Shown: positions 196 to 14,163 of the stretch, piece by piece
How positions within the stretch are numbered: the stretch's first letter is position 1
Layout of the letters: every line of letters begins with the position of its first letter
Assembly (NCBI GenBank): GCA_029243485.1
Contig: JAQWRY010000088.1
Coordinates: forward strand, 299,212 to 363,211
DNA length: 64,000 nucleotides
Direction of reading: 5' to 3'
From: Candidatus Binatia bacterium
GTDB lineage: Bacteria > Desulfobacterota > Binatia > UBA12015
Notes under the pieces: model-generated
Told to the model about the DNA's origin: nothing
The model's database searches: none
The model's input: the letters and a program-made list of their open reading frames with translations, nothing else
Program-made: the position numbers and the translations under genes

Positions 196-1545
196 CTATT
201 TCTTTGCCGGCTGCATCCCGGCGAGGAAACTCTCCGCGAGCGACTCGTACAGCGATGTCCGACAGATCAGGTGAGACATTTCGTACGCGAGCAGCGCGGC
301 GAGCGCGAGGGGCAGGGCCATGTAGTGCGCACTGGTCATTTCAATCAGGATCACGAAGGCCGTGATCGGGCTCTGCACTACCCCGCTGAAGTAGGAGACC
401 ATCCACAGAAGGACGAGTGCCTGGGGGTCGATGTTCGGGAACAGCGGTTGCGTGATCTGTCCGAGCGCGGCGCCTGTCGTGAGGCTCGGATCGAAGAGTC
501 CGCCTGGGATGCCCGAGAGCAGCGTGATGAAGTTGCCTGCCGCGACGACCGGCGCGAGGTAGATCGGGTAGGACTCTCCGTGGATCAGGATGCCCTCGGC
601 GGCCGGGTATCCGCTCCCGTAGCTCAGCCCGCCGGAGACCAGCCCGATCACGCCGAGTCCGACGCCCAGCCCGAGGGCGACCAGGTGTGGGTGCTTCGCG
701 CGCAACGGTGAGAGGAGGCGGTTCACGGAGACGACGCCCTGCGCGAAAGTGCCGCCGAGCAGTCCGCCGACGATCCCGATCACGGGCACGAGGAGCCATT
801 CCTCGAGCGTCGCGAGGCCGACGTCGATCCGGCCGTAGAAGTAGTAGTCGCCGAGGAAGATCAGGTTCACGATGCACGCGACCACCGCCGTACGAACGAT
901 CGTGCCGGCGTTGTCCTTCTCGAAGGATCGTCCGATTTCCTCGAAAGCGAACACCGCCCCGGCGATCGGCGTGTTGAAGGCGGCAGCGATCCCCGCGGCG
1001 CCGCCGGCGAGGATGAGTCCGCGCTGGACGAGGTGATGCTGGAAGTTCGCGAAGCGCGTCGAGAGGTACATCAAGCACGCGGCGACGTGCACGGACGGGC
1101 CTTCGCGCCCGATCGTCGGACCGGCGAACAGCCCCATGACGAGGAGCAGCATCTTGCCGATCATGATCCGAACCGACAGGACCTTAGTGCGCTCCGGTCC
1201 GTCGGGGATCTTGAGCGCGGCGATGGTCTGCGGAATTCCGGTGCCGTCGGTCCCTGGGAAGACGCGGTCGCGCAGTGCGCAGATGATGACGAGCGAGATA
1301 CTGACGACGCCTGCAGGGAGGAAGGGCGAGATGCCCGTCATCCACGCACGGCTCTCCTGGCTCAGTTGCTCGGTGTAGTTGAAGAGGTAGGCACCGAGCC
1401 CACTCGCCGCGGCCGCGGCCACCCACACCGCATGCCGTCGCATCGCGGCGACGGAAAATAGGTTCTGTCGCCAGCCTGCCCACCCCGGTTGCAGCCCGCG
1501 GGCTGCAACGGTGTCGTCCGTCCCCGTCTCCTCGTCTCCGGCCAT
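196..1545 (-). CDS. ClC-family voltage-gated chloride channel (ClcA/EriC-like)
   Basis: The ORF is 449 aa and polytopic. It carries the ClC signature motifs GTGIP, GREGP and GIPGGLFDPS. The true start may be an internal Met, since the N-terminal 35 aa are not hydrophobic. Confidence 0.85.
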   Translation of the reverse strand: MAGDEETGTDDTVAARGLQPGWAGWRQNLFSVAAMRRHAVWVAAAAASGLGAYLFNYTEQLSQESRAWMTGISPFLPAGVVSISLVIICALRDRVFPGTDGTGIPQTIAALKIPDGPERTKVLSVRIMIGKMLLLVMGLFAGPTIGREGPSVHVAACLMYLSTRFANFQHHLVQRGLILAGGAAGIAAAFNTPIAGAVFAFEEIGRSFEKDNAGTIVRTAVVACIVNLIFLGDYYFYGRIDVGLATLEEWLLVPVIGIVGGLLGGTFAQGVVSVNRLLSPLRAKHPHLVALGLGVGLGVIGLVSGGLSYGSGYPAAEGILIHGESYPIYLAPVVAAGNFITLLSGIPGGLFDPSLTTGAALGQITQPLFPNIDPQALVLLWMVSYFSGVVQSPITAFVILIEMTSAHYMALPLALAALLAYEMSHLICRTSLYESLAESFLAGMQPAKK

Positions 1546-1552
1546 GGCGCGT

Positions 1553-3196
1553 CTATCCGTCGCGGTACTTACGGAACAGGCGGATCAGCTCGTTGGTCGA
1601 CCCGTCGTGGCCCAGTTCGGGATCGGCTTCCGACTGCAGCTCGGGAATGATGCGGTTGGCCAGGACCTTGCCGAGCTCGACGCCCCATTGGTCGAAAGAG
1701 TTGATGCGCCAGATCCAGCCCTGCGTGAAGATCTTGTGCTCGTAGAGCGCGATGATCTGTCCGAGGATGTGCGGGGTGAGCTCGTTCTTCACGAGGATCG
1801 TCGTCGTGGGGTGGTTTCCGCGGAAAGTGCGGTGCGGGACGGTGGCTTCGTCGACGCCTTCGCTCCGGACCTCTTCGGCGGTCTTGCCGAACGCGAGCGC
1901 TTCGGTCTGGGCCAGGCAGTTCGCCATCAGGAACTCGTGGTGCTCGCCCAGATCGTTCGACGGCTTCGCGAAGCCGATGAAGTCGCACGGTATGAGCTTC
2001 GTGCCCTGATGGATGAGCTGGTAGTAGGCGTGTTGGCCGTTCGTGCCGGGTTGCCCCCACACGATCGGGCCGGTCTGATAGTCGTCGATGGGGGCGCCGT
2101 CTCGATCCACCGACTTGCCGTTGCTCTCCATGTCGAGCTGCTGGAGGTACGACGTCAGGCGCCAGAGGTACTGGTTGTACGGCAGGATCGACTGGGTCTG
2201 GGCACCGAAGAAGTCGTTGTACCAAAGCCCGATGAGCGCGAGGGTCACCGGGAGGTTCTCTTCGAGCGGCGCGGTCCGGAAATGCTCGTCCATTGCGTGA
2301 AAGCCGTCGAGCATTTCGCGGAACCCACGCGGGCCGATCGCGATCATGAGCGAAAGGCCGATCGCGGAGTCGTACGAGTAGCGACCACCGACCCAGTCCC
2401 ACATCTCGAACATGTTGGCCGTGTCGATGCCGAACTTAGAAACCTCCTCGGCGTTGGTCGACACCGCGACGAAGTGCTTTGCGACGGCGCTCTCGTCTCC
2501 GAGCGCGTCGAGTGCCCACTTCCGCGCGGTGTGCGCGTTGGCGAGGGTCTCGAGGGTCGTGAACGTCTTGGAGCAGATGATGAAGAGCGTCTCGGCGGGA
2601 TCGAGCCCCTGGACGGCCTCGGCAAACGCCGTTGCGTCGACGTTCGAGACGTACTGAAACGTCATCGAGCGCTCGCTGAACTTCTTCAGGGCCTCGTAGG
2701 CCATCGCCGGACCGAGATCCGAGCCGCCGATCCCGACGTTGACGACGTTCTTGATGCGCTTGCCGGTGTGGCCCTTCCACGCGCCGCTCCGGACGCGATC
2801 TGAGAAGTCGGCCATCTTGTCGAGGACGGCGTGCACCGTCGGGACGACGTTTTCGCCGTCGACCTCGATCACGGCATCGCGCGGGGCCCGCAGGGCGACG
2901 TGCAGGACCGCCCGATCCTCGGTGATGTTGATCTTCTCGCCCGCGAACATCGCGGAGATCCCCGTGGAGAGCCCGGCCCGTTGGGCGAGGCCCCGCAGGA
3001 GTCCGAGCGTCTCGTCGGTCAACCGGTTCTTCGAGAAGTCGGTGTAAAGGTCGAGGACGTCGAGGGAGAGACGCTTGCCCCGGTCCGGATCCTCGGCAAA
3101 CAGGTCGCGCAGATGGCGCCCCTCGATCTCGTTCTGATGTCTCTCCAGCGCCTTCCACTCATCCCAGCTGGTCGGCTTTCCGCCCATGTTACCCAC
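1553..3196 (-). CDS. pgi: Glucose-6-phosphate isomerase
   Basis: The ORF is 547 aa with full-length similarity to PGI. It contains the conserved blocks ...[12 protein letters not shown]... and ...[21 protein letters not shown]... along with the sugar-isomerase signature. Confidence 0.95.
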
Positions 3197-3287
3197 TTAG
3201 AGCCCCCTATCCCTTTGCCCGATGGCACGGTGCCGTCTTGGGCGAGATGTTGCAACGGCCCCCGGTTTTCCTGTTGAACTCGGCCGC

Positions 3288-4805
3288 ATGCGTGAGCGTG
3301 CGGCGCAGGCGGTCCTGCTGGCTCGCTCGTTCGAGGAGGCGGACCCAGAAGGGGTTCTCCTCTCGAGCGAGGATCGAGGGTCTGCGACCGAGGCGGGACG
3401 CGCCGCCGGCGGCACGCCGGATCTCCAGGCGGAGCGTCGAGCGGGTGCACTGCTCGTCGGTCTGAGCGAGCAGGTACGGGCGCTAGCCCGGGTGCGTTCG
3501 TGGACGCGGGTCTCTCTGGGCCTCGTCGCCCCGGTCGTCTTGGTCTCGTTCCTGGTGGGGCTCTCGACCAACGCCCTGGGGCCCACGCGACACATCAACC
3601 TGCTAGCATTTCCGCTTCTCGCGCTCGTGGTCTGGAACGTCTCGGTCTACGGCTTCGTGCTCGTCTCGGGTCTCGTGACTGTTTTGCGTCGCCCGGCGCG
3701 ACGGGCGGACGGGCCGACCGCCGACGGCGCCGCCGCGGCTGACCGCGGGACCGGGTTCCTCGCGTCTGTCGCCTGGTGGGTCGGGGAGTGGACCCTCGAG
3801 AGAGTGCGCACTCCGGATCCGCGCGAGGCTGATGTCGTCTCGCGGGCGCTCGCCGCCTATTGGTCGGAGTGGGCGCACGCGAGTTTGCTCCTGGGTTTCG
3901 CTCGGCTGCGCGCGTTCCTTCATCTCGGTGCGGCCGCGCTCGCGGTCGGGGTCGTTGCGGGGATGTACATCCGTGGGCTCGGGCTCGAGTACCGCGCCAC
4001 CTGGGAGAGCACGTTCCTTTCCTCGGACGCCGTCGCCGCGATCCTCCACCTCGTCCTCGGACCCGCGGCGGTCCTTCTCGGAGAGACGTTGCCCGATGCG
4101 GCCGGTCTCGCGTCGATGGTCGCCCCGGAAGGTTCGACGCCCGCAGCTCCGTGGATTCACATGTGGGGGCTCACGACAGCCGGCGTGGTCGTCGGCCCCC
4201 GTCTCCTGCTAGCGGCGACACAACTCGTGCGTTCGGCGTCTCTGGCACGTTCCGTTTCGGTCGATCCGCTCGCCGGCTCCTTTCGGGCGCTCCTGGTTTC
4301 CGAGCGTGGTGCGGACGTACGGATCGACGTACTGCCTTACAGCTACAACCCCGGTACCCGACAACTCGAAACGCTCCGCGAGCTGCTCCACGATCTCTTC
4401 GGCCTGGAGGCGCGCATCGACGTTCTCCCTCAGGTGGCCTACGGAACCGAACTCGACGCAGAGACGTTCGAGCCGCCGCCCACCTGTGTGGTCGTCGTTT
4501 ACGGCCTCGTGCAGTCGCCCGAGCGAGAAGTGCACGCCCGCTATCTCGAGCAATGGATGGAGAAGGGCGGAGAGCCGCAGGTCCTGGCGTTGCTCGACGG
4601 CTCGAGTTGGCGAGAACGCTTCGGCGAGGGTTCCGGCCAACGAGAGGCCGAGAGACTGCGCGCCTGGGGCCGCGTTATGCGTGAGATCGGGGTGACGGCT
4701 CTTCGGGTCGACCTCGGAAAACCACTCGCACAAGGCACGGTCGAACGTGCCGAAAGCAGCCTATGGCCCGACGCTAGCACCGCCCGCACAACCGGAGGCC
4801 GTTGA
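3288..4805 (+). CDS. Polytopic membrane protein, DUF2868-like (family name from memory), first gene of the GTPase/dynamin triad
   Basis: It has at least 6 predicted TM helices, for example VSLGLVAPVVLVSFLVGLSTNALG, INLLAFPLLALVVWNVSVYGFVLV and LLLGFARLRAFLHLGAAALAVGVVAG. It sits immediately upstream of a DUF3482-type GTPase, which is the conserved pairing for this family. The start is ambiguous between a GTG/ATG at 3222 and the ATG at 3288, and the gene is divergent from pgi. Confidence 0.6.
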   Translation: MRERAAQAVLLARSFEEADPEGVLLSSEDRGSATEAGRAAGGTPDLQAERRAGALLVGLSEQVRALARVRSWTRVSLGLVAPVVLVSFLVGLSTNALGPTRHINLLAFPLLALVVWNVSVYGFVLVSGLVTVLRRPARRADGPTADGAAAADRGTGFLASVAWWVGEWTLERVRTPDPREADVVSRALAAYWSEWAHASLLLGFARLRAFLHLGAAALAVGVVAGMYIRGLGLEYRATWESTFLSSDAVAAILHLVLGPAAVLLGETLPDAAGLASMVAPEGSTPAAPWIHMWGLTTAGVVVGPRLLLAATQLVRSASLARSVSVDPLAGSFRALLVSERGADVRIDVLPYSYNPGTRQLETLRELLHDLFGLEARIDVLPQVAYGTELDAETFEPPPTCVVVVYGLVQSPEREVHARYLEQWMEKGGEPQVLALLDGSSWRERFGEGSGQREAERLRAWGRVMREIGVTALRVDLGKPLAQGTVERAESSLWPDASTARTTGGR

Positions 4806-4808
4806 CCG

Positions 4809-6257
4809 ATGAATCTCGTCACCTTGAGCCTGATTTCTCACACCAACGTCGGCAAGACGACACTCGCGCGTACGCTCTTGCGCACCGATGTCGGGGAGGT
4901 TCTCGACCAGGCGCACGTGACCGAGGTGAGCGAGGCTTACGATCTCGTGAAGACCAAGGAAGCCTGCCTGCGCCTCTGGGATACGCCGGGCCTGGGCGAT
5001 TCTGCGCGATTGGTCGGTCGACTCCAGAAGGAGGGGAACCCGCTCGGCTGGTTCCTCCATCAAGTCTGGGATCGGTATCGGGACCGCTCTCTGTTCTGCA
5101 GTCAGCAAGCCGTCCGCAACATCCAACGCGAGGCCGACGTCGTCCTCTACCTCGTGAACACTTCGGAGGAGCCGGAGGAGGCCGGCTACGTGCCGCACGA
5201 GATGGAGCTCCTCGGTTGGATCGGGAAGCCGGTGCTCGTACTGCTGAACCAGACGGGCATCGCAGGGTCCGAGCGCGATGAGGCGGCCTTCCAGCAGTGG
5301 ACGGCCGCGGTGAAGCCCTGGCCGATCGTGCGCGACGTACTTCCGCTCGACGCGTTCACGCGCTGTTGGGTGCAGGAGGGCGTGTTGCTCGAGCGCGTTG
5401 CGGGGATCATCGACGGAGAGCCGCACGAGACCATGCAGGACCTCGCCAGCGCATGGGAGCGCGGGAACCTCTCCATCTTCGAGCGCGCATGCAGTCAGGT
5501 AGGACGGTACGTGCTGACGGCTGCGCTCGACCGCGAGACGCTCACGGGGCAGGGCCTGGGGCAAACGGAGAAGCGACGCGCGATGCGCGTCCTCGCGCAG
5601 CGGTTGGACGACACGACCCGCAGGTTGATGGACAGTCTCATCGCCGACCACGGTCTGGTCGGTCGCTATCAAACGGACGCGCGCGAGCGCCTCGAACAAG
5701 ACTTCGATTCGCCGGGCGAGAAGGCGTGGACGTCCGGGCGCGCCGGCGTTCTCGGCGCCGCGATGGGCGGTGCCGCGGGCGGTCTGGTTGCCGACGTCGC
5801 CGTGGCCGGATTGTCGTTTGGCGGCGGTGCGGTTGCCGGCGCCTTGCTCGGTGCCGCCGGTGCTATGGGGCTCCGCAGGGGGTTTCAGTTCGTAAGAGCC
5901 GAGCAGACGCCTGAGGTTCGGTGGGCGGCGGAGTTCCTCGACCAACTCCTGCGGCAGTCGCTTCTGCGGTATCTGGCGGTGGCCCATTTCGGTCGCGGCC
6001 GCGGGGAATGGCGCGAAACGGGCAATCCCGAGCGGTGGAACGCCCTTGTGGAAGCTGCGATTTCCGGCGCGGGCGATCAGTTCTCGGAGCTGACCACCCG
6101 GCTGCGGGGCGCCGGCGAGGAGCCCCCCGGTATGGAGGACCAGTTCTCCACTTACGTCCGGCATGTGCTCACAGAAGTGCTTTCCACAGCCTATCCGCAG
6201 GCTGCGCACATCCTGCGGACAACCCAATCCGCAGCGAATTCTGGGGAGAATTCCTGA
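4809..6257 (+). CDS. MMR_HSR1-type GTPase with a DUF3482-like C-terminal domain
   Basis: The P-loop is HTNVGKTTL and the G3 motif is WDTPGLGD. A C-terminal Gly/Ala-rich hydrophobic segment reads GVLGAAMGGAAGGLVADVAVAGLSFGGGAVAGALLGAAGAMG. Only 4 nt separate it from the upstream membrane-protein gene. Confidence 0.85.
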   Translation: MNLVTLSLISHTNVGKTTLARTLLRTDVGEVLDQAHVTEVSEAYDLVKTKEACLRLWDTPGLGDSARLVGRLQKEGNPLGWFLHQVWDRYRDRSLFCSQQAVRNIQREADVVLYLVNTSEEPEEAGYVPHEMELLGWIGKPVLVLLNQTGIAGSERDEAAFQQWTAAVKPWPIVRDVLPLDAFTRCWVQEGVLLERVAGIIDGEPHETMQDLASAWERGNLSIFERACSQVGRYVLTAALDRETLTGQGLGQTEKRRAMRVLAQRLDDTTRRLMDSLIADHGLVGRYQTDARERLEQDFDSPGEKAWTSGRAGVLGAAMGGAAGGLVADVAVAGLSFGGGAVAGALLGAAGAMGLRRGFQFVRAEQTPEVRWAAEFLDQLLRQSLLRYLAVAHFGRGRGEWRETGNPERWNALVEAAISGAGDQFSELTTRLRGAGEEPPGMEDQFSTYVRHVLTEVLSTAYPQAAHILRTTQSAANSGENS

Positions 6258-6300
6258 TCGGCACTTTCGGAGCGGCCTCCCGAATGGCAAAAATGCCTTT

Positions 6301-8463
6301 GTGAAGACGATTCTCAGTCAGTTCTGTGAGGACTTCGATGGTCGGGTCCGTCCCCTCCTCGAGCCGCTCGATGGATTCGCCGCCCAAATCGGTCGCCTGC
6401 CCGCCGATTCGCCCCTGAAGCAGCTCCTCCCCGAAGTCATCGATGTCCGCCACCAGCTGCGGACCCTGGTCGAGAAAGTCGCCGAGCAGCAGGCCTACGT
6501 CATCATCTTCGGACCCCTGAAGAGCGGGAAGTCGACCCTCATGAACGCGCTCGCCGCGGCCTACGTGAGTGAGGTGACGACTCTCCCGGCGTATCCCTGC
6601 ATGGTCTACGTCGCGAACGGGGATGACGAGCAGTTCACGGTCACGCGCTACGACGGGAGCGTCGACAAGTTCGGCGACCTCGCGTCGATGCGCTCCCTCA
6701 TGGAAACCGCGCACGGCGAACTCGCCGGCTCGATCCGCGAGGTTGAAGGGCACGGCGAGGATTTCGATCCCGCGAGCCACATGCCGCAGGCGCTTCGCCG
6801 AGTCGACGTGCGGATGCCGACCGAGCCGCTGGCCGAATCCGGCGCGGTTCTGGTCGACACGCCCGGGCTCTATAGCCGCATGAAGTTCGGTTACGACCTC
6901 ATGACCCGCGAGTTTCGGGACTCGGCGGCGAGTGCGATCTTCGTCGTGAAGACGGACAGCCTGTTCCTGGAGCAGGTATTCGATGAGTTCTCGGATCTCC
7001 TCCGCCTCTTCAGCCGGATCTTCCTGATCGTGAACCTCGACGGCACAAAGCAGGATCTGCAGCCCGATGGCGAGCTCGGCCCGAGTCTCGAGCGGCGTGA
7101 CCCGCAGCGCATCATCGACGCGTTCGAGAGCCTCTCGATGAATGTGGAGCTGAAGTCGGCGTGGGAAGAGGGCCGTCTGCGCATCTATCCGATCGATCTC
7201 CTGCAGGCCGCGAGTAGGCGTCTGCGTGGCGACGAACCTGATGAGGCGACGGAGGAGTCCGCTGCGGAAGAGCAGGCCGGGAATACGCTGGCCTCGTTCG
7301 GTGGCTTCACGGACGACCTCACGCACTATCTGAACAGCACTGAGTACATGACTGCGTTCCTCGGAGACAGTCTTCGCCAGGCGGAGTACCTCGTGCATGG
7401 GCTCGAGTCCGTGTGCGCCTCGGAACCGGTGCACGAGCTGTCTGAGGGGCTGGAAAAGTGGGACGCCGAACGCGATTGCGCACAGACGCTTCTCGCAGCG
7501 GTCCGCCGGTTGCAGGCGTTCCCGTGGGACGAGACATTGGCCCGCATGCGCGAGGACGTCGTTCGGATCACTCGCGAGCGGATTGGCGACTTGCGCCGCG
7601 ATACGGCCGAGGCGGCGGAAGGCGCTCTCGCACGTTGGTACGATGGTGACGCGAGCTACGCGAGCTTGATTCGCGAGGATCTCGAAGGTGTTCTGGCGAC
7701 CTGCCGCGACGCGATGGTGGAGACGGCAAGCGACGTCTCGGCGACCGTGCTCTCGAGCGACGTCGCCGGTGCGATGGTACGGAGCGAAACTAGTGACGAC
7801 CTGAATCTGGTCGGCCTCTCGGTGGCTGGAATCGCACGGGAGCTCGAAGGAACGGTGCGGTCCGCCGCCGAGGATCGTCAGGTGACGCCCGAGATCCCGA
7901 CGCGCGCGATTCCCGTCCGTCGGCGTCTGGTCGATTGGTTGTTGCTGCGCAGTCAGGCTTCGGTACGCCGTAGTGTGTTCGGCCCCGACGATGCGCCGTC
8001 CCGCCCGATTCCGCGAATCGTGAAGCAGCGGCGTCTCGGTGCCGGCCGCGTGGCACTTGGTGAGGCGATCCGTAGCCGAATCGATCGCCTCTTCGCCGAG
8101 ACGTTGCACCGCGTGGGCTCCGAGGTATACGGCGCGCATGTTGCCGCCGTTTGCCGCCAGGTCGAAGAGCGTCTCCAGACGCTCGAAAAGGAGAACGTGG
8201 CCCGGCTGGCGACGGCCGAGCAGCATCGCCAGGTGCTCGCTGCGTTGCGCTCGGACGTGGACGCCCTTGCGGGTACTCTGGGTGAAGCGAGTCAGGCGAT
8301 TGCGAGTCTCGCGGCCGCGTACGGTGAGCCCATTCCCGAGCGTGAAGCCGATCCGCTGGAGTTGGTGGAAGAGGTCGGCGTGCCCGAAGAGGCCACGCCG
8401 GATCTCCGGGCCGCGGCCGCGGCGGCTGGCGCCGGGCCCTCCGGCGATTCGAACGACAGCTGA
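6301..8463 (+). CDS. Bacterial dynamin-like protein (dynamin-family large GTPase)
   Basis: It has the dynamin-type G1 motif IIFGPLKSGKSTLMNAL and G3 motif VLVDTPGL, followed by a long helical stalk region, for ~720 aa in total. There is no in-frame ATG after the upstream stop, so the start is either the GTG at 6301 or the upstream ATG at 6163, which would overlap the preceding gene by 95 nt. Confidence 0.8.
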   Translation: MKTILSQFCEDFDGRVRPLLEPLDGFAAQIGRLPADSPLKQLLPEVIDVRHQLRTLVEKVAEQQAYVIIFGPLKSGKSTLMNALAAAYVSEVTTLPAYPCMVYVANGDDEQFTVTRYDGSVDKFGDLASMRSLMETAHGELAGSIREVEGHGEDFDPASHMPQALRRVDVRMPTEPLAESGAVLVDTPGLYSRMKFGYDLMTREFRDSAASAIFVVKTDSLFLEQVFDEFSDLLRLFSRIFLIVNLDGTKQDLQPDGELGPSLERRDPQRIIDAFESLSMNVELKSAWEEGRLRIYPIDLLQAASRRLRGDEPDEATEESAAEEQAGNTLASFGGFTDDLTHYLNSTEYMTAFLGDSLRQAEYLVHGLESVCASEPVHELSEGLEKWDAERDCAQTLLAAVRRLQAFPWDETLARMREDVVRITRERIGDLRRDTAEAAEGALARWYDGDASYASLIREDLEGVLATCRDAMVETASDVSATVLSSDVAGAMVRSETSDDLNLVGLSVAGIARELEGTVRSAAEDRQVTPEIPTRAIPVRRRLVDWLLLRSQASVRRSVFGPDDAPSRPIPRIVKQRRLGAGRVALGEAIRSRIDRLFAETLHRVGSEVYGAHVAAVCRQVEERLQTLEKENVARLATAEQHRQVLAALRSDVDALAGTLGEASQAIASLAAAYGEPIPEREADPLELVEEVGVPEEATPDLRAAAAAAGAGPSGDSNDS

Positions 8464-8583
8464 GCACGCGCGTTCGCGGCGTGGGGCCTCCGGGCCCCGC
8501 GGGCGGAGGGAGCATCCAGCGCGGCGGCGTCCGCGTCCCGGTACGCCGCCGAGGCACCGAACAACTTCCAGTGAAAGGATCTC

Positions 8584-8820
8584 GTGGCGGCCTTCCTGAC
8601 AGGGATTCCCGGCGTGAACGAGGACGTCGACACCTCGCTTCGCGCGATGATGGGCGCGGTCTGCCACACGGGGCTCGGGATCTGCGAAGCCGGCGACGCC
8701 CCATCGGGGGACGAGGAGTTCACGGATGGGGCGTTCATCGAGGCCGGGATGTTCCCCGACGTGTTTCCCTATCTGAACACGCCGCCTCCCGGCCCCCCGA
8801 ACGGCGAAGGCCAGACCTGA
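8584..8820 (+). CDS. Small acidic hypothetical protein (78 aa)
   Basis: A GTG start is preceded by AAAGGA 7 nt upstream. Third-position GC is very high, as in the surrounding genes. It lies immediately downstream of the dynamin-like gene, and no family is recognised. Confidence 0.4.
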   Translation: MAAFLTGIPGVNEDVDTSLRAMMGAVCHTGLGICEAGDAPSGDEEFTDGAFIEAGMFPDVFPYLNTPPPGPPNGEGQT

Positions 8821-9202
8821 GTCGTGGGATCAACCGATGTCGATTCCGCGCGGAGGATTCCTTTGACTCATTCCGTCTCGATCCGCGCTACTGGCGCGGA
8901 TATGACGACGCCTACGCCGAGGTCGCCGCCGTCTCCGGTGCCCGCCGCGACCGCCGACGGCAGCGCCGGTGTTCCCGCGATGCCCGCGGGCTCTTCACCT
9001 ACCTGCAGTCGCGCGCCTACCAGAGCTTTGCCGCCGAGTCGGGCGTACACCCCACGAACGCACCGCACATGACGTCGGTGCGGACGTTCCTGAATCCGTC
9101 GCTCGAGGCGTCGCTCGCAAGTGACGCCTCGTCCCATCCCGTCGCAGCGGCGGCGGTAAAGGAACTCTACGGCGCGGATGGAATGCTCTGGGGAGTGTCG
9201 GT

Positions 9203-9574
9203 ATGGTGTGGCGCGTATGCGATTCTGAGAACTGCGACTTCTTCCCTCTTTCGGACTGCGGCTGGAAGGCCCTGGGCAATCCCCCCGGCAGCAGGGGCCA
9301 CAAGTGCCGTGGGAGCCACGAAGGCTACGAAAGTTGTAAAGTGCTTCTCAAGGAGAACGTCATCAAGGCCACATGCAAGGACTCGACCGTGCTCAATTTT
9401 GGGTCTCCAGCGTCTACGTACGGCGCTGCGTGGGCGATTGTTTGGGTTGGTCAGTCTTACTGCGCTCGGGTGAACGCAGCGACGAACCCCATCCGCGTGA
9501 AAGACGAGCCGGGCTATTGGAAGGCGGTCCATGCCGAAGTCACGGAGGCTTGTCCGCCGATGAATCCGAACTAG
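9203..9574 (+). CDS. Cysteine-rich hypothetical protein (123 aa)
   Basis: The product has 8 Cys (CDSENCDFFPLSDC...CRGSHEGYESC...C...C...C). The gene sits in a locally lower-GC stretch while keeping elevated third-position GC in this frame. It may be the C-terminal part of a longer frameshifted gene; see the findings. Confidence 0.4.
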   Translation: MVWRVCDSENCDFFPLSDCGWKALGNPPGSRGHKCRGSHEGYESCKVLLKENVIKATCKDSTVLNFGSPASTYGAAWAIVWVGQSYCARVNAATNPIRVKDEPGYWKAVHAEVTEACPPMNPN

Positions 9575-9618
9575 GGAGGGGAAAGTTCTAGGTTGTGATC
9601 CATGGTAGGAAGCAAGCC

Positions 9619-12639: not shown

Positions 12640-14163
12640 TCAGCCCTCCGGGGCCCAGTCCGGCGAGACGCGGTACGCCCGGTACACGTTCACAGAGAGT
12701 GTACCGGTCGGCAATTGCAGGGTGATCAGCGGTTCGAACGGAGATACGAACTCCCAAACGATCTCTCCGTCGCGCGTGACCTCGAACATGCGTCCGGAGT
12801 TGCCCTCATCGATGAACGTGTTGCCGCCCGGCAGCCGCTGCGAGCTGCTCAGGTTGAACGCATAGAAGCGCGGCGTGCCGTCCGCTCCTGCGGTCGGCTG
12901 CTCGTACGACCACACGGCCTCCCGGGTTGCGGGGTCGACTTCTAGAATGCGGGAGTAGCCGCGGTCGTACAAATTGCTGGTGAGCGCGCCGCTCGCGTCC
13001 CGACCGAAGCCGGCCGCACTGCCGTTGTCGAAGACCAGGATGTTCCCTTCGCCGGGCAAGCCAAAGGGGATCATGTGCGGGTGGTGCTGGCCGCTGATCG
13101 GCCCGAAGGTGACGTCGTCGAAGTACGGACCAAGTCGCCAGACCACGTTCCCCGCCGACCAGTCGCCGTCCGGGTGGTCGTGCCGCGCGACGATGAACAG
13201 GAGGGCCCCTTGCCGAGAGCCCACCAGCACGTTGTCGGGATGAAATCGCTCGTCGCACTCGCTCGAGCCGGGCTCGCGGCAATGACGGTTCGGGCCGAGG
13301 TACGAGACCGCGTTCAAGAGGAGCCAGCCCTGGCCAGGAGGAGCGGGGACGTCCGGAGGGGCGAGGCCGCCAGCGAACAACGTGATAGCCGCGCGCGCGT
13401 CGGCATCGAAGCCCAGCTCGTCGATGTGGTCTGCGCCGAGCCACTCCCACAAGAGCGTTTTTCCGTCCGCCGCCATCTCGACGATCGACTCTTCGCCGAC
13501 GTCCATGCCGCCGACTGCCGCCGATTGCTCCGGTGTCAGGTCGGCGTGGGCGAGGAACAGAACGCGACCGTCGCCGCGGCTCTCCGTGATCTCGGGAGTC
13601 CAATAGACAGGGGTGTTCCACACCTGAAGGTCGTGGTGGGCGAGGGCCGACGGCCGCCCTTCATCGGTCGTTCCGTATTGCAGAGGGTTCAGCTCGCCAC
13701 CGCACTCCGCTCCGGGGGGCGCTTCGTTGGGCCATACGGCGCCACCGTCCCAATCAAGGATGGCGACGCAAGGGGAGCGGAAGTCGACGAGGCTAGGGAG
13801 TGTCGTCGGGCCGGGGTGCTCGATCGTTCCGAGTACGTGGCCAGGCTCGGGCATGGGCTCGCCATCGGCTCCGCTCGTCGACCAGGAGTTGAGAAACCGC
13901 CCGAGTCCATCGACGAGATACAAGCCCGAGTCCTCGGCGGAGAGGACGTTGAAGAGCGTGTATCGCGTCTCCGCCGGCGCGCCGTCACTGAGTGTCACGC
14001 ACGCGGTCGACGTCTCCGGGGAGCATCCGGAGAGGTCGCGACGTGCGATCGGCTCTGTCGGCTCGAGCGGCTGCTCGTCCGTTGCGATCGTCGTGTCGGA
14101 ACAGCCGGTTGCGAGAAGAGACGCTGCGACGCAGAGGAGAAGGCTCGATTGGAGGGGCGTCAC
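12640..14163 (-). CDS. Secreted lipoprotein, likely beta-propeller-type (a possible arylsulfotransferase-like enzyme is speculative)
   Basis: It has a signal peptide and a lipobox (LLATGC). The product is 507 aa and rich in Gly, Asp and Trp repeat-like segments. The family cannot be assigned without a search. Confidence 0.6.
   Translation of the reverse strand: MTPLQSSLLLCVAASLLATGCSDTTIATDEQPLEPTEPIARRDLSGCSPETSTACVTLSDGAPAETRYTLFNVLSAEDSGLYLVDGLGRFLNSWSTSGADGEPMPEPGHVLGTIEHPGPTTLPSLVDFRSPCVAILDWDGGAVWPNEAPPGAECGGELNPLQYGTTDEGRPSALAHHDLQVWNTPVYWTPEITESRGDGRVLFLAHADLTPEQSAAVGGMDVGEESIVEMAADGKTLLWEWLGADHIDELGFDADARAAITLFAGGLAPPDVPAPPGQGWLLLNAVSYLGPNRHCREPGSSECDERFHPDNVLVGSRQGALLFIVARHDHPDGDWSAGNVVWRLGPYFDDVTFGPISGQHHPHMIPFGLPGEGNILVFDNGSAAGFGRDASGALTSNLYDRGYSRILEVDPATREAVWSYEQPTAGADGTPRFYAFNLSSSQRLPGGNTFIDEGNSGRMFEVTRDGEIVWEFVSPFEPLITLQLPTGTLSVNVYRAYRVSPDWAPEG

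Follow-up and report, generated by a model that had tools for sequence, protein, structure and literature searches.

Three consecutive genes in a Candidatus Binatia MAG probably represent two separate membrane-associated GTPase systems, which are syntenic in this Binatia lineage. The first system consists of genes 1 and 2, encoding a DUF2868-type membrane protein and a small GTPase with a DUF3482 region. The second system is gene 3, encoding a dynamin-like protein (DLP). Bacterial DLPs are known from few studied systems and are usually thought to act as paralogous pairs. DUF3482 or DUF2868 is mentioned in only four papers, none of them a functional study, and the literature contained no published function for the gene pair and no experiment on any of the three gene families.

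Gene organization of the locus

The genes are located in a window of 64,000 nt, which is the whole stretch of DNA analyzed. The original prediction described three co-directional reading frames with the motifs HTNVGKTTL and DTPG in gene 2 and GPLKSGKST and DTPGL in gene 3. All were present as claimed in the ORF map and the translations (Table 1). Because each gene has hundreds to thousands of homologues, none of the three is a chance ORF. An in-frame ATG at 3222 is an alternative upstream start for gene 1; the 505-aa form is the one identical to the NCBI protein.

Three nucleotides separate the stop codon of gene 1 from the ATG of gene 2, and a GGAGG is found 11 nt upstream of this ATG. The gap between genes 2 and 3 is 43 nt and contains no terminator-like site; over the region, such sites were no commoner than in shuffled sequence. 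The three genes are probably co-transcribed in this Binatia lineage. Position suggests that the promoter of the cluster lies in the divergent intergenic region, where no match to the sigma-70 consensus was found. The cluster is flanked upstream by pgi and a CLC channel gene on the minus strand, and downstream by SDR and glyoxalase genes.

Table 1 Features of the locus, with positions in the window.
Feature	Position	Strand	Description and evidence
Intergenic region, divergent	3197..3287	.	91 bp between pgi (minus strand, start 3196) and gene 1; ORF map and sequence
Gene 1	3288..4805	+	505 aa, divergent DUF2868 polytopic membrane protein; 100% identity to NCBI MAG protein P8R42_29770
Gene 2	4809..6257	+	482 aa, small GTPase, MMR_HSR1 and DUF3482; 100% identity to Binatia "GTPase domain-containing protein"
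Gene 3	6301..8463	+	720 aa, dynamin-like protein, GTG start; 100% identity to Binatia "dynamin family protein"

Genes 1 and 2 form a widespread two-gene module

In nearly all of the 80 genome loci sampled, gene 2 directly follows gene 1; these loci cover Pseudomonadota, Verrucomicrobiota, Acidobacteriota, Planctomycetota, Methylomirabilota, Binatota, and other phyla. The stop-to-start spacing of the pair is an overlap of -8, -4, or -1 nt in 37 of the 80 loci and is at most 11 nt in 46, and one locus (L062) carries a candidate in-frame fusion of the two genes. A scan of 185,579 species-representative genomes found the pair in at least 553 of them, spread over many phyla including Pseudomonadota; it is absent from plasmids. 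No other conserved neighbor of the pair, including solute-related genes, was found, and about 95% of the sampled loci are without any DLP. The sampled loci support the earlier proposal of a neighborhood of two uncharacterized families, the membrane protein and the GTPase, and show it to be strongly conserved. Genes 1 and 2 are thus a widespread, conserved, and uncharacterized two-gene module.

Gene 1 and the DUF2868 family

The gene 1 protein is composed of a soluble N-terminal region of about 70 aa, five hydrophobic segments (around residues 72-94, 104-131, 206-228, 247-267, and 290-315), and a soluble C-terminal region of about 190 aa. The hydropathy of the sequence and the family alignment indicate that these segments are conserved in the family. 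Five such segments would put the C-terminal domain across the membrane from the N-terminus. The polar or charged residues N117, H212, R229, H291, and R305, in or beside the segments, are invariant. Gene 1 contains no GTPase motif, neither a P-loop nor DxxG. Its profile has no similarity to those of genes 2 and 3, and no transporter family in Pfam or NCBIfam was matched.

The families predicted for the first two genes were compared with Pfam. Gene 2 matched both of its expected families, whereas gene 1 itself missed DUF2868 (PF11067; gathering score 26.8 bits) even at E<=1, and its homologues passed. Among the 160 homologues of gene 1 that were found, many carry PF11067, and full-length homologues (E 1e-44 to 1e-137) clear the DUF2868 threshold. 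Six of them, with alignments that cover more than 90% of gene 1 at E values of 1e-47 to 1e-116 and 31-47% identity, score 28.9-55.3 bits on PF11067. The position of gene 1 upstream of a DUF3482 gene is conserved, as for the DUF2868 family. A profile search collected 2306 representatives of 50%-identity clusters, all of about 470-560 aa. Gene 1 is a divergent DUF2868 member, too far diverged for the Pfam model.

Gene 2 carries a complete, non-dynamin G domain

Gene 2 scored 40.5 bits on MMR_HSR1 (PF01926; threshold 21.9) and 42.8 bits on DUF3482 (PF11981; threshold 29.2). Residues 1-185 form an Era/EngB-like G domain with G1 SHTNVGKTT, switch I T38, and G3 DTPG. The G4 motif is atypical, being N147-Q148-x-G150 (NQxG) and not NKxD, and is invariant across 56 homologues. 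As the canonical NKxD confers guanine specificity, gene 2 is only putatively specific for guanine nucleotides. The best structural matches of the G domain were Era, EngA, EngB, and FeoB; dynamins matched no better than Ras or Rab, and no dynamin was present in the Foldseek top 50. The hhalign comparison of the gene 2 and gene 3 profiles gave no relation (probability 6.5%). The domain is a compact TRAFAC-class G domain with the MMR_HSR1 signature, as in GTPases of the TrmE-Era-EngA-YihA-septin-like (TEES) group. The G domain of gene 2 is complete, Era/EngA/EngB/FeoB-like, and not dynamin-like.

Residues 187-310 and 374-478 are helical bundles, and between them residues 312-355 make up a hydrophobic hairpin of the glycine-zipper type, in which Asp329 is invariant. 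The hairpin weakly resembles that of the ATP synthase c-subunit (E 0.46). Since it was modeled at pLDDT below 50, its insertion into the membrane is proposed from its composition. Gene 2 is most likely a membrane-anchored GTPase.

Gene 3 is a mitofusin/BDLP-class dynamin-like protein

The placement of the third gene in the dynamin family was confirmed by a Dynamin_N match of 36.5 bits, above the gathering score of 27. Two N-terminal helices (residues 4-61) are followed by a large G domain (65-310; G1 GPLKSGKST, G3 DTPG, and G4 TKxD), a helical trunk (321-514), a 95-residue C-terminal helix (580-674), and a disordered acidic tail. Across 64 sequences, GPLKSGKST, DTPG, and TKQD show little or no variation. 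The G domain is nearer to the dynamin type than to small GTPases, and N- and C-terminal helices make up the neck and trunk.

Residues 515-580, where a paddle would be expected, form a conserved segment that is net basic and contains aromatic and leucine residues. This segment is a candidate paddle, which presumably binds the membrane, and it is equally conserved in lineages with and without the pair. No hydrophobic transmembrane segment was found in gene 3 (maximum hydropathy 1.19). The gene 3 family comprises 1288 matches from Binatia, Planctomycetota, and other phyla, and mostly stands alone, being solo in Planctomycetota and at other loci. Neither a universal partner nor a second DLP was found in its neighborhoods. 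Because the family is large, mostly solo, and without a hydrophobic paddle, it stands as a branch of its own among the mitofusin-like DLPs, and an unstudied one.

Linkage of gene 3 to the pair

The three genes had been predicted to be co-localized in related genomes, and such triad loci were found by the neighborhood check. They fall in a single clade of the gene 3 tree, and the triad was seen only there. The distance between genes 2 and 3 varies within this clade: at one extreme they overlap by 4 nt, and at the other 5 kb of unrelated genes separates them. The 4-nt overlap occurs in L001 and L097, and L088 retains the triad with different flanking genes upstream. At six loci, heterogeneous unrelated genes are located between genes 2 and 3. 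The insertions include glycosyltransferases, an aldo-keto reductase with GFA, a phosphoesterase, and an unknown gene on the minus strand. A solo sub-branch is nested inside the triad clade. The synteny with pgi is conserved about as well in this clade, and CLC is likewise retained. When metagenome loci were centered on gene 3, the pair was upstream in only 10 of 80, and genes 1 and 2 were the commonest non-self neighbors in this sample.

The restriction of the triad to one clade, the occurrence of both units alone elsewhere, and the intervening genes in several triad-clade genomes indicate that the locus is not an obligate three-part machine. The case for cooperation of gene 3 with the pair is weakened by the insertions, the solo sub-branch, the pgi synteny, and the equal conservation of the candidate paddle in solo lineages. 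Such cooperation is possible, with the balance leaning slightly against it.

Discussion

The original prediction compared the locus with LeoABC, with gene 3 as the intact DLP, genes 1 and 2 as a split DLP, and all three as one fission/fusion or vesiculation complex. In favor of the analogy, gene 3 is itself a DLP, bacterial DLPs mostly occur as pairs in operons (PMC6104087), the linkage of the three genes is tight in part of the clade, and the domain order of gene 2 is topologically like that of BDLP or mitofusin. Furthermore, the gene 2 G domain matched the PADLOC profiles of LeoBC (30.5 bits, E 4.9e-8) and LeoA (27.8 bits), though weakly and over part of the domain. The split itself did not hold up. 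In the known system, LeoC contributes the P-loop, switch 1, and a transmembrane anchor, and LeoB contributes DxxG, the stalk, the paddle, and the GED; the LeoBC split therefore runs through the dynamin G domain (PMC4159319). Gene 2 has G1-G4 on one chain, gene 1 has none of them and has a profile unlike gene 2 or gene 3, and the two partners do not share the dynamin family, as gene 2 matches Era, EngA, EngB, and FeoB. The pair is not a LeoBC-like split dynamin. With most pair loci lacking a DLP and gene 3 lacking the pair in most lineages, a LeoABC-type machine is very unlikely. Anti-phage defense of the Eleos (LeoA/LeoBC) type is more improbable still and can hardly be expected. It would draw on the resemblance of the gene 2 G domain to the phage protein family phrog_8900 and on the PADLOC matches of genes 2 and 3, but these are weak (20-30 bits) and mostly cover part of the G domain; for gene 3, the LeoA match covers part of the G domain only, and the LeoBC match spans 62-463. 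The stable housekeeping synteny with pgi and CLC over a deep clade is unlike a variable defense island, and a pair that is absent from plasmids and spread over many phyla also argues against defense.

Genes 1 and 2 could instead form a transporter or channel gated by nucleotide, analogous to FeoB but made of two polypeptides, with gene 3 unrelated or accessory. The invariant polar residues of gene 1 and the glycine zipper of gene 2 with its invariant Asp and c-subunit likeness are consistent with this; however, gene 1 falls in no Pfam or NCBIfam transporter family and its hydrophobic segments number only about five, no conserved solute-related genes lie beside the pair, and the similarity to FeoB is limited to the generic G domain. 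This reading is unlikely. A quite possible alternative is inherited synteny only, in which gene 3 and the pair serve unrelated processes and are neighbors by chance in the clade. It agrees with the autonomy of both units elsewhere, the inserted genes, the equally kept pgi and CLC synteny, and the solo sub-branch. Against it, the 4-nt overlaps of genes 2 and 3 imply co-translation, the triad survives a change of upstream flank in L088, gene 3 has genes 1 and 2 as its commonest non-self neighbors in the metagenome sample, and both units are membrane-associated GTPases.

Two separate but syntenic systems remain the preferred reading. In the first system, genes 1 and 2 would form a stoichiometric inner-membrane complex from genes that are translationally coupled almost everywhere. 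The glycine-zipper hairpin of gene 2 most likely inserts into the cytoplasmic membrane, and nucleotide binding and hydrolysis may shift this hairpin and the helical bundle in conformation and, through them, affect the state of gene 1. By analogy with related TEES GTPases, hydrolysis is probably dimerization- and cation-dependent. In the second system, gene 3 would be soluble or peripheral and may remodel, tether, or repair the membrane, to which its basic/aromatic segment presumably binds, on GTP-dependent dimerization of the G domain, as other bacterial DLPs do. A bolder and rather doubtful extension is that DUF2868 and DUF3482 might be an unrecognized, widespread membrane-remodeling or tethering GTPase machine that arrived at the mitofusin/atlastin design by convergence, with an Era-type G domain as its starting point. 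Its role in Binatia would be that of a membrane-embedded partner or receptor for a soluble DLP without a paddle, giving a heterotypic pair of a dynamin and a non-dynamin GTPase.

The linkage to a DLP in Binatia is the first contextual hint of a role of the pair in the dynamics or maintenance of membranes. For tractable organisms that have the pair, the gene 2 model supplies concrete, testable hypotheses. Should the linkage be synteny only, the finding shrinks to the correct annotation of three genes.

Comparison with known systems

LeoABC of ETEC H10407 (= Eleos) resembles the locus in its layout: two co-directional genes precede a DLP gene, and one of the two encodes a P-loop GTPase with a membrane-anchoring hydrophobic sequence. 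Among mitofusin/BDLP-class DLPs, gene 3 was compared with MFN2, Fzo1, M. smegmatis IniA, Campylobacter Cj-DLP1/2, Synechocystis SynDLP, and Nostoc BDLP1. In contrast to these, gene 3 has no hydrophobic paddle or transmembrane hairpin and carries the basic/aromatic 515-580 segment there instead, and no paralogous DLP partner adjoins it. Its sequence similarity to solved DLPs is negligible.

The mitofusin/atlastin architecture consists of a G domain, a helical bundle, two membrane segments, and C-terminal helices. By comparison of design, gene 2 has a similar linear order of G domain, helices, hydrophobic hairpin, and helices; however, its G domain belongs to the small Era type and not to the dynamin/GBP type, and the protein is half the size. 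Homology of gene 2 to mitofusin or atlastin was not supported by profile and structure comparison. Compared with Era, EngA (Der), EngB (YihA), MnmE, and FeoB, gene 2 is without a KH or other RNA-binding domain and adds a helical DUF3482 region of 300 aa, whose presumed membrane hairpin lacks any solved relative. It is paired with a membrane protein at nearly all sampled loci and not with ribosome-related genes. Genes 1 and 2 have the same order, coupling, and lengths as the DUF2868/DUF3482 pair of Pseudomonas and many other bacteria, and the clade of the window differs from the usual pair in having a DLP gene after it.

Gene models and surroundings

Three co-directional genes had been predicted, and three plus-strand ORFs were found in the region: gene 1, a DUF2868-like membrane protein; gene 2, a GTPase with MMR_HSR1 and DUF3482 domains; and gene 3, a dynamin-like protein (DLP). 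The organism is a member of the class Binatia in the phylum Candidatus Binatota. The gene models are fixed by full-length identities of 100% to annotated proteins, and the motifs quoted in the original prediction are present in the translations of genes 2 and 3. Upstream in-frame alternatives, an ATG at 3222 for gene 1 and a longer ORF at 6163 for gene 3, received no support from homologues. The gap between genes 1 and 2 is 3 nt, with a GGAGG box at the junction, and that between genes 2 and 3 is 43 nt. Promoter and terminator scans of the region gave nothing above chance.

The approximately 1.1 kb located 3' of gene 3 (8464-9590) carries no convincing ORF. A 330-aa ORF at 8481-9473 is Arg-rich, translates implausibly and is unlikely to be a gene. 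The Rfam scan of this 1.1-kb region gave no match, and comparison with the stretches 3' of gene 3 in relatives gave no similarity.

Features of the three-gene region and its flanks
Feature	Location	Strand	Remarks
CLC channel and pgi	196-3196	-	upstream flank of gene 1
Gene 1	3288-4805	+	505 aa; 100% identical full-length to Candidatus Binatia MAG hypothetical protein
Gene 2	4809-6257	+	482 aa; 100% identical full-length to Candidatus Binatia MAG 'GTPase domain-containing protein'
Gene 2, compact G domain	residues 1-185		AlphaFold2 model
Gene 2, P-loop	4836-4859	+	S-H-T-N-V-G-K-T
Gene 2, G4 motif	5247-5258 (residues 147-150)	+	N-Q-x-G
Gene 2, helices	residues 187-310 and 374-478		AlphaFold2 model
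Gene 2, hydrophobic glycine-rich stretch	residues 312-355		low model confidence, between helical regions
Gene 3	6301 (GTG)-8463	+	720 aa; 100% identical full-length to Candidatus Binatia MAG 'dynamin family protein'
Gene 3, two N-terminal helices			predicted model
Gene 3, large G domain	residues 65-310		predicted model
Gene 3, helical trunk			predicted model
Gene 3, poorly ordered segment	residues 515-575		predicted model
Gene 3, C-terminal helix			95 residues, after the poorly ordered segment
SDR and glyoxalase			downstream flank of gene 3

Genes 1 and 2 are an autonomous module

Gene 1 itself gave no match against Pfam and NCBIfam, even at E<=1, so its assignment to DUF2868 (PF11067) could be upheld only through its relatives. 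Homologues (n=160) were found, many of them carrying PF11067, with alignments covering more than 90% of gene 1; the best 120 listed span identities of 79% to about 31%. All six homologues that were rescanned passed the DUF2868 gathering score, which makes gene 1 a divergent DUF2868 protein. Searching 1.84 billion proteins with a profile of the gene 1 family returned 2306 representatives of 50%-identity clusters, the best 150 of which are about 470-560 aa long and align over essentially the whole profile. Gene 1 encodes a polytopic membrane protein with five hydrophobic segments that are kept across the family and with soluble N- and C-terminal regions. The sequence-profile search of the PDB with gene 1 gave no match. 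A visual resemblance of its C-terminal domain to a degenerate G domain that might pair with gene 2 found no support, the sub-profile hhalign probability being 1%.

Gene 2 exceeded the thresholds of both MMR_HSR1 (40.5 bits) and DUF3482 (PF11981; 42.8 bits). Its AlphaFold2 model has a pLDDT of 81.4 and a pTM of 0.82. The glycine-rich stretch is GAAMGGAAGGLVADVAVAGLSFGGGAVAGALLGAAGAMGL, in which many Gly and Asp329 are invariant. The Asn of the P-loop is invariant, as in the cation-dependent GTPases of the Era/MnmE/FeoB type. The G4 motif is an invariant NQxG in place of the canonical NKxD, and the guanine-specifying Asp is therefore absent. In the fold comparison, the dynamin-family entries Fzo1 (11.0) and IniA (10.4) did not score above Rab or Ras. 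The sequence-profile search of the PDB gave P-loop-level or Era N-terminal matches only, and no solved relative was found for the DUF3482 part (300 aa). In gene 2, an Era-type GTPase is thus fused to a helical domain bearing a hydrophobic glycine-zipper hairpin.

The G domain of gene 2 (residues 2-147, window 4812-5249) also matches phrog_8900 with 49 bits, a phage family with a 466-position profile and no assigned function. The plasmid search with gene 2 gave weak matches only, over G-domain residues 4-150 at 30% identity, both in Neisseria records.

The distribution of the pair was examined by scanning a single genome for each species, which gave at least 553 gene 2 relatives; the best 80 loci were examined with HMMs of the three families. 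Nearly all loci with enough upstream sequence have a gene 1 homologue directly 5' of gene 2, which bears out the predicted conservation of the pair. These loci come from Pseudomonadota, Verrucomicrobiota, Acidobacteriota, Planctomycetota, Methylomirabilota, Binatota and even Agromyces. Of 80 spacings between the gene 1 stop and the gene 2 start, 37 are overlaps and 46 amount to 11 nt or less. Clustering of all neighbouring ORFs revealed no third conserved gene family, and only L006 and L007 have a gene 3 homologue adjoining the pair, with L008 having one 5 kb downstream. Genes 1 and 2 are thus a tightly coupled, autonomous and widespread module.

The majority of the other matches to the pair are from Gram-negative phyla. 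The two Agromyces sp. isolate genomes (Actinomycetota; L077 and L082, 6289-9464) carry it with 44-47% identity to the gene 2 of the window, possibly through horizontal transfer. A search of 360 database proteins yielded no gene 1-gene 2 fusion. A betaproteobacterial nanopore-derived MAG supplied one candidate (L062, 6408-9482, plus strand), a single stop-free frame in which a Gly/Ser/Val-rich linker, about 45 aa long, joins the two homologues. This frame is either a natural fusion or a long-read assembly indel error; if natural, it would back a physical interaction of genes 1 and 2.

Gene 3 is a mostly solo dynamin-like protein

The dynamin-family assignment of gene 3 held, with Dynamin_N at 36.5 bits against a gathering score of 27. 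Sequence-profile searches of the PDB were uninformative, giving P-loop-level or Era N-terminal matches only, and a fold comparison was therefore required. The predicted model has a pLDDT of 85.9, and gene 3 is a DLP of the mitofusin/BDLP class. Hydropathy analysis of gene 3 revealed no hydrophobic segment. Residues 515-580 are the sole net-basic part of an otherwise acidic protein, carry the conserved motif IPV(R/K)..DWLL(F/L)RS.A.VRR..FGP...P..P..VK..RLG, and are proposed as a candidate peripheral paddle.

In a gene 3-centred sample of 80 metagenome loci, the pair lies upstream of gene 3 in 10. Apart from one further locus with a gene 2 homologue downstream, the others show no pair; about 40 of these have at least 3.2 kb of upstream sequence, whereas in about 25 the upstream sequence does not reach far enough for a decision. 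Solo gene 3 includes Planctomycetota orthologues of 48-49% identity and L087. Neither a second DLP nor a universal gene 3 neighbour was found among the gene 3 loci. Gene 3 is an autonomous, widespread and mostly solo DLP.

Outside the triad clade, L103 has a gene 2 homologue (12785-14110, minus strand) on the opposite strand 4.7 kb 3' of gene 3, which may be an independent loose association. In Planctomycetota, solo gene 3 adjoins PLD-type (cardiolipin-synthase-like), Exo_endo_phos and GDSL-lipase/TPR genes (L003, 2202-6114; L005, 2276-6255). In L008 (9435-14389), genes 2 and 3 are separated by a PF04185 phosphoesterase and GT2 glycosyltransferases. A lipid/envelope flavour recurs in these three neighbourhoods.

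The triad and its possible working

Co-localisation of all three genes in related genomes was confirmed: all triad loci fall within one gene 3 clade; elsewhere gene 3 is mostly solo. The neighbour-joining tree, built from gene 3 proteins, places a small solo sub-branch inside this clade and indicates a single gain and some loss. Genes 2 and 3 overlap by 4 nt in L001, L097 and L002, the last being a second contig on which the L001 gene 3 protein recurs. The two genes are 42-43 nt apart in the window and four relatives; a gap of 91-269 nt separates them in another four loci of the clade, and one of 1.3-5.2 kb in six. The large gaps are filled by unrelated genes: GT2 glycosyltransferases, an aldo-keto reductase with GFA, a PF04185 phosphoesterase, and an uncharacterised minus-strand gene.

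Other bacterial DLPs combine GTP-dependent dimerisation with membrane remodelling or tethering (PMC6104087). By analogy, gene 3 would bind the membrane peripherally and remodel or tether it on GTP-dependent dimerisation. Genes 1 and 2 would form an inner-membrane complex, in which the nucleotide cycle of gene 2 would act through the helical bundle and the hairpin on gene 1. In Binatia, the pair and gene 3 may be co-expressed and serve the same membrane-maintenance process. Functional cooperation of gene 3 with the pair, which are neighbours in one clade, is plausible, at somewhat below even chances.

Pure synteny would explain the same neighbourhood with no cooperation, and is a serious though rather doubtful alternative. 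A divergent pgi lies 5' of gene 1 in 10 loci of the triad clade (window, L001, L006-L008, L010, L086, L090, L097 and L105), with PGI 76-92% identical across them and a CLC channel gene beyond pgi in 6 of the 10. The pgi synteny and the linkage of gene 2 with gene 3 are similarly stable, and therefore synteny alone could explain part of that linkage. The triad persists, however, in L088, where the genomic context is different. Another reading of genes 1 and 2, as a FeoB-like gated transporter, is unlikely.

No functional studies of DUF2868 or DUF3482 were found in the searched literature; the pair, though catalogued, is uncharacterised, and its position beside a DLP is undescribed as far as that literature shows. 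What the locus offers is a contextual hint for a large family with no assigned function, together with a distinct DLP family that is solo and paddle-less; it does not demonstrate a new machine.

Comparison with LeoABC and defence systems

A transposon mutant of Pseudomonas pseudoalcaligenes AVO110, GAM2, with poor survival in fungal exudate, was hit in a gene that RAST annotates as a 'LeoA ortholog' and that overlaps the hypothetical gene upstream of it (PMC6344628). The gene arrangement of the GAM2 locus (KX863700) resembles the DUF2868/DUF3482 pair, and these two genes might be this pair. A defence island was also considered for the present locus; its stable housekeeping synteny and broad chromosomal distribution argue against it. 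The PADLOC LeoA and LeoBC profiles gave weak matches (20-30 bits) for genes 2 and 3, which show general P-loop GTPase relatedness only.

The original prediction likened genes 1-3 to an intact dynamin beside a split one, as in LeoABC of enterotoxigenic E. coli. This interpretation is supported only in part: the Dynamin_N match of gene 3 agrees with it, but the defining split dynamin G domain was not found. LeoC (206 aa) holds the N-terminal part of the dynamin G domain, with P-loop and switch 1, and a TM anchor, and LeoB (572 aa) holds DxxG, the middle domain, the paddle and the GED (PMC4159319). Gene 1 bears neither a GTPase nor a stalk signature and shows no similarity, at the level of profiles, to either of the other two genes; hhalign comparisons of gene 2 with gene 3, gene 1 with gene 3, and gene 1 with gene 2 gave no significant relation. 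The G domain, split between LeoC and LeoB in LeoABC, is complete in gene 2 and of a non-dynamin type.
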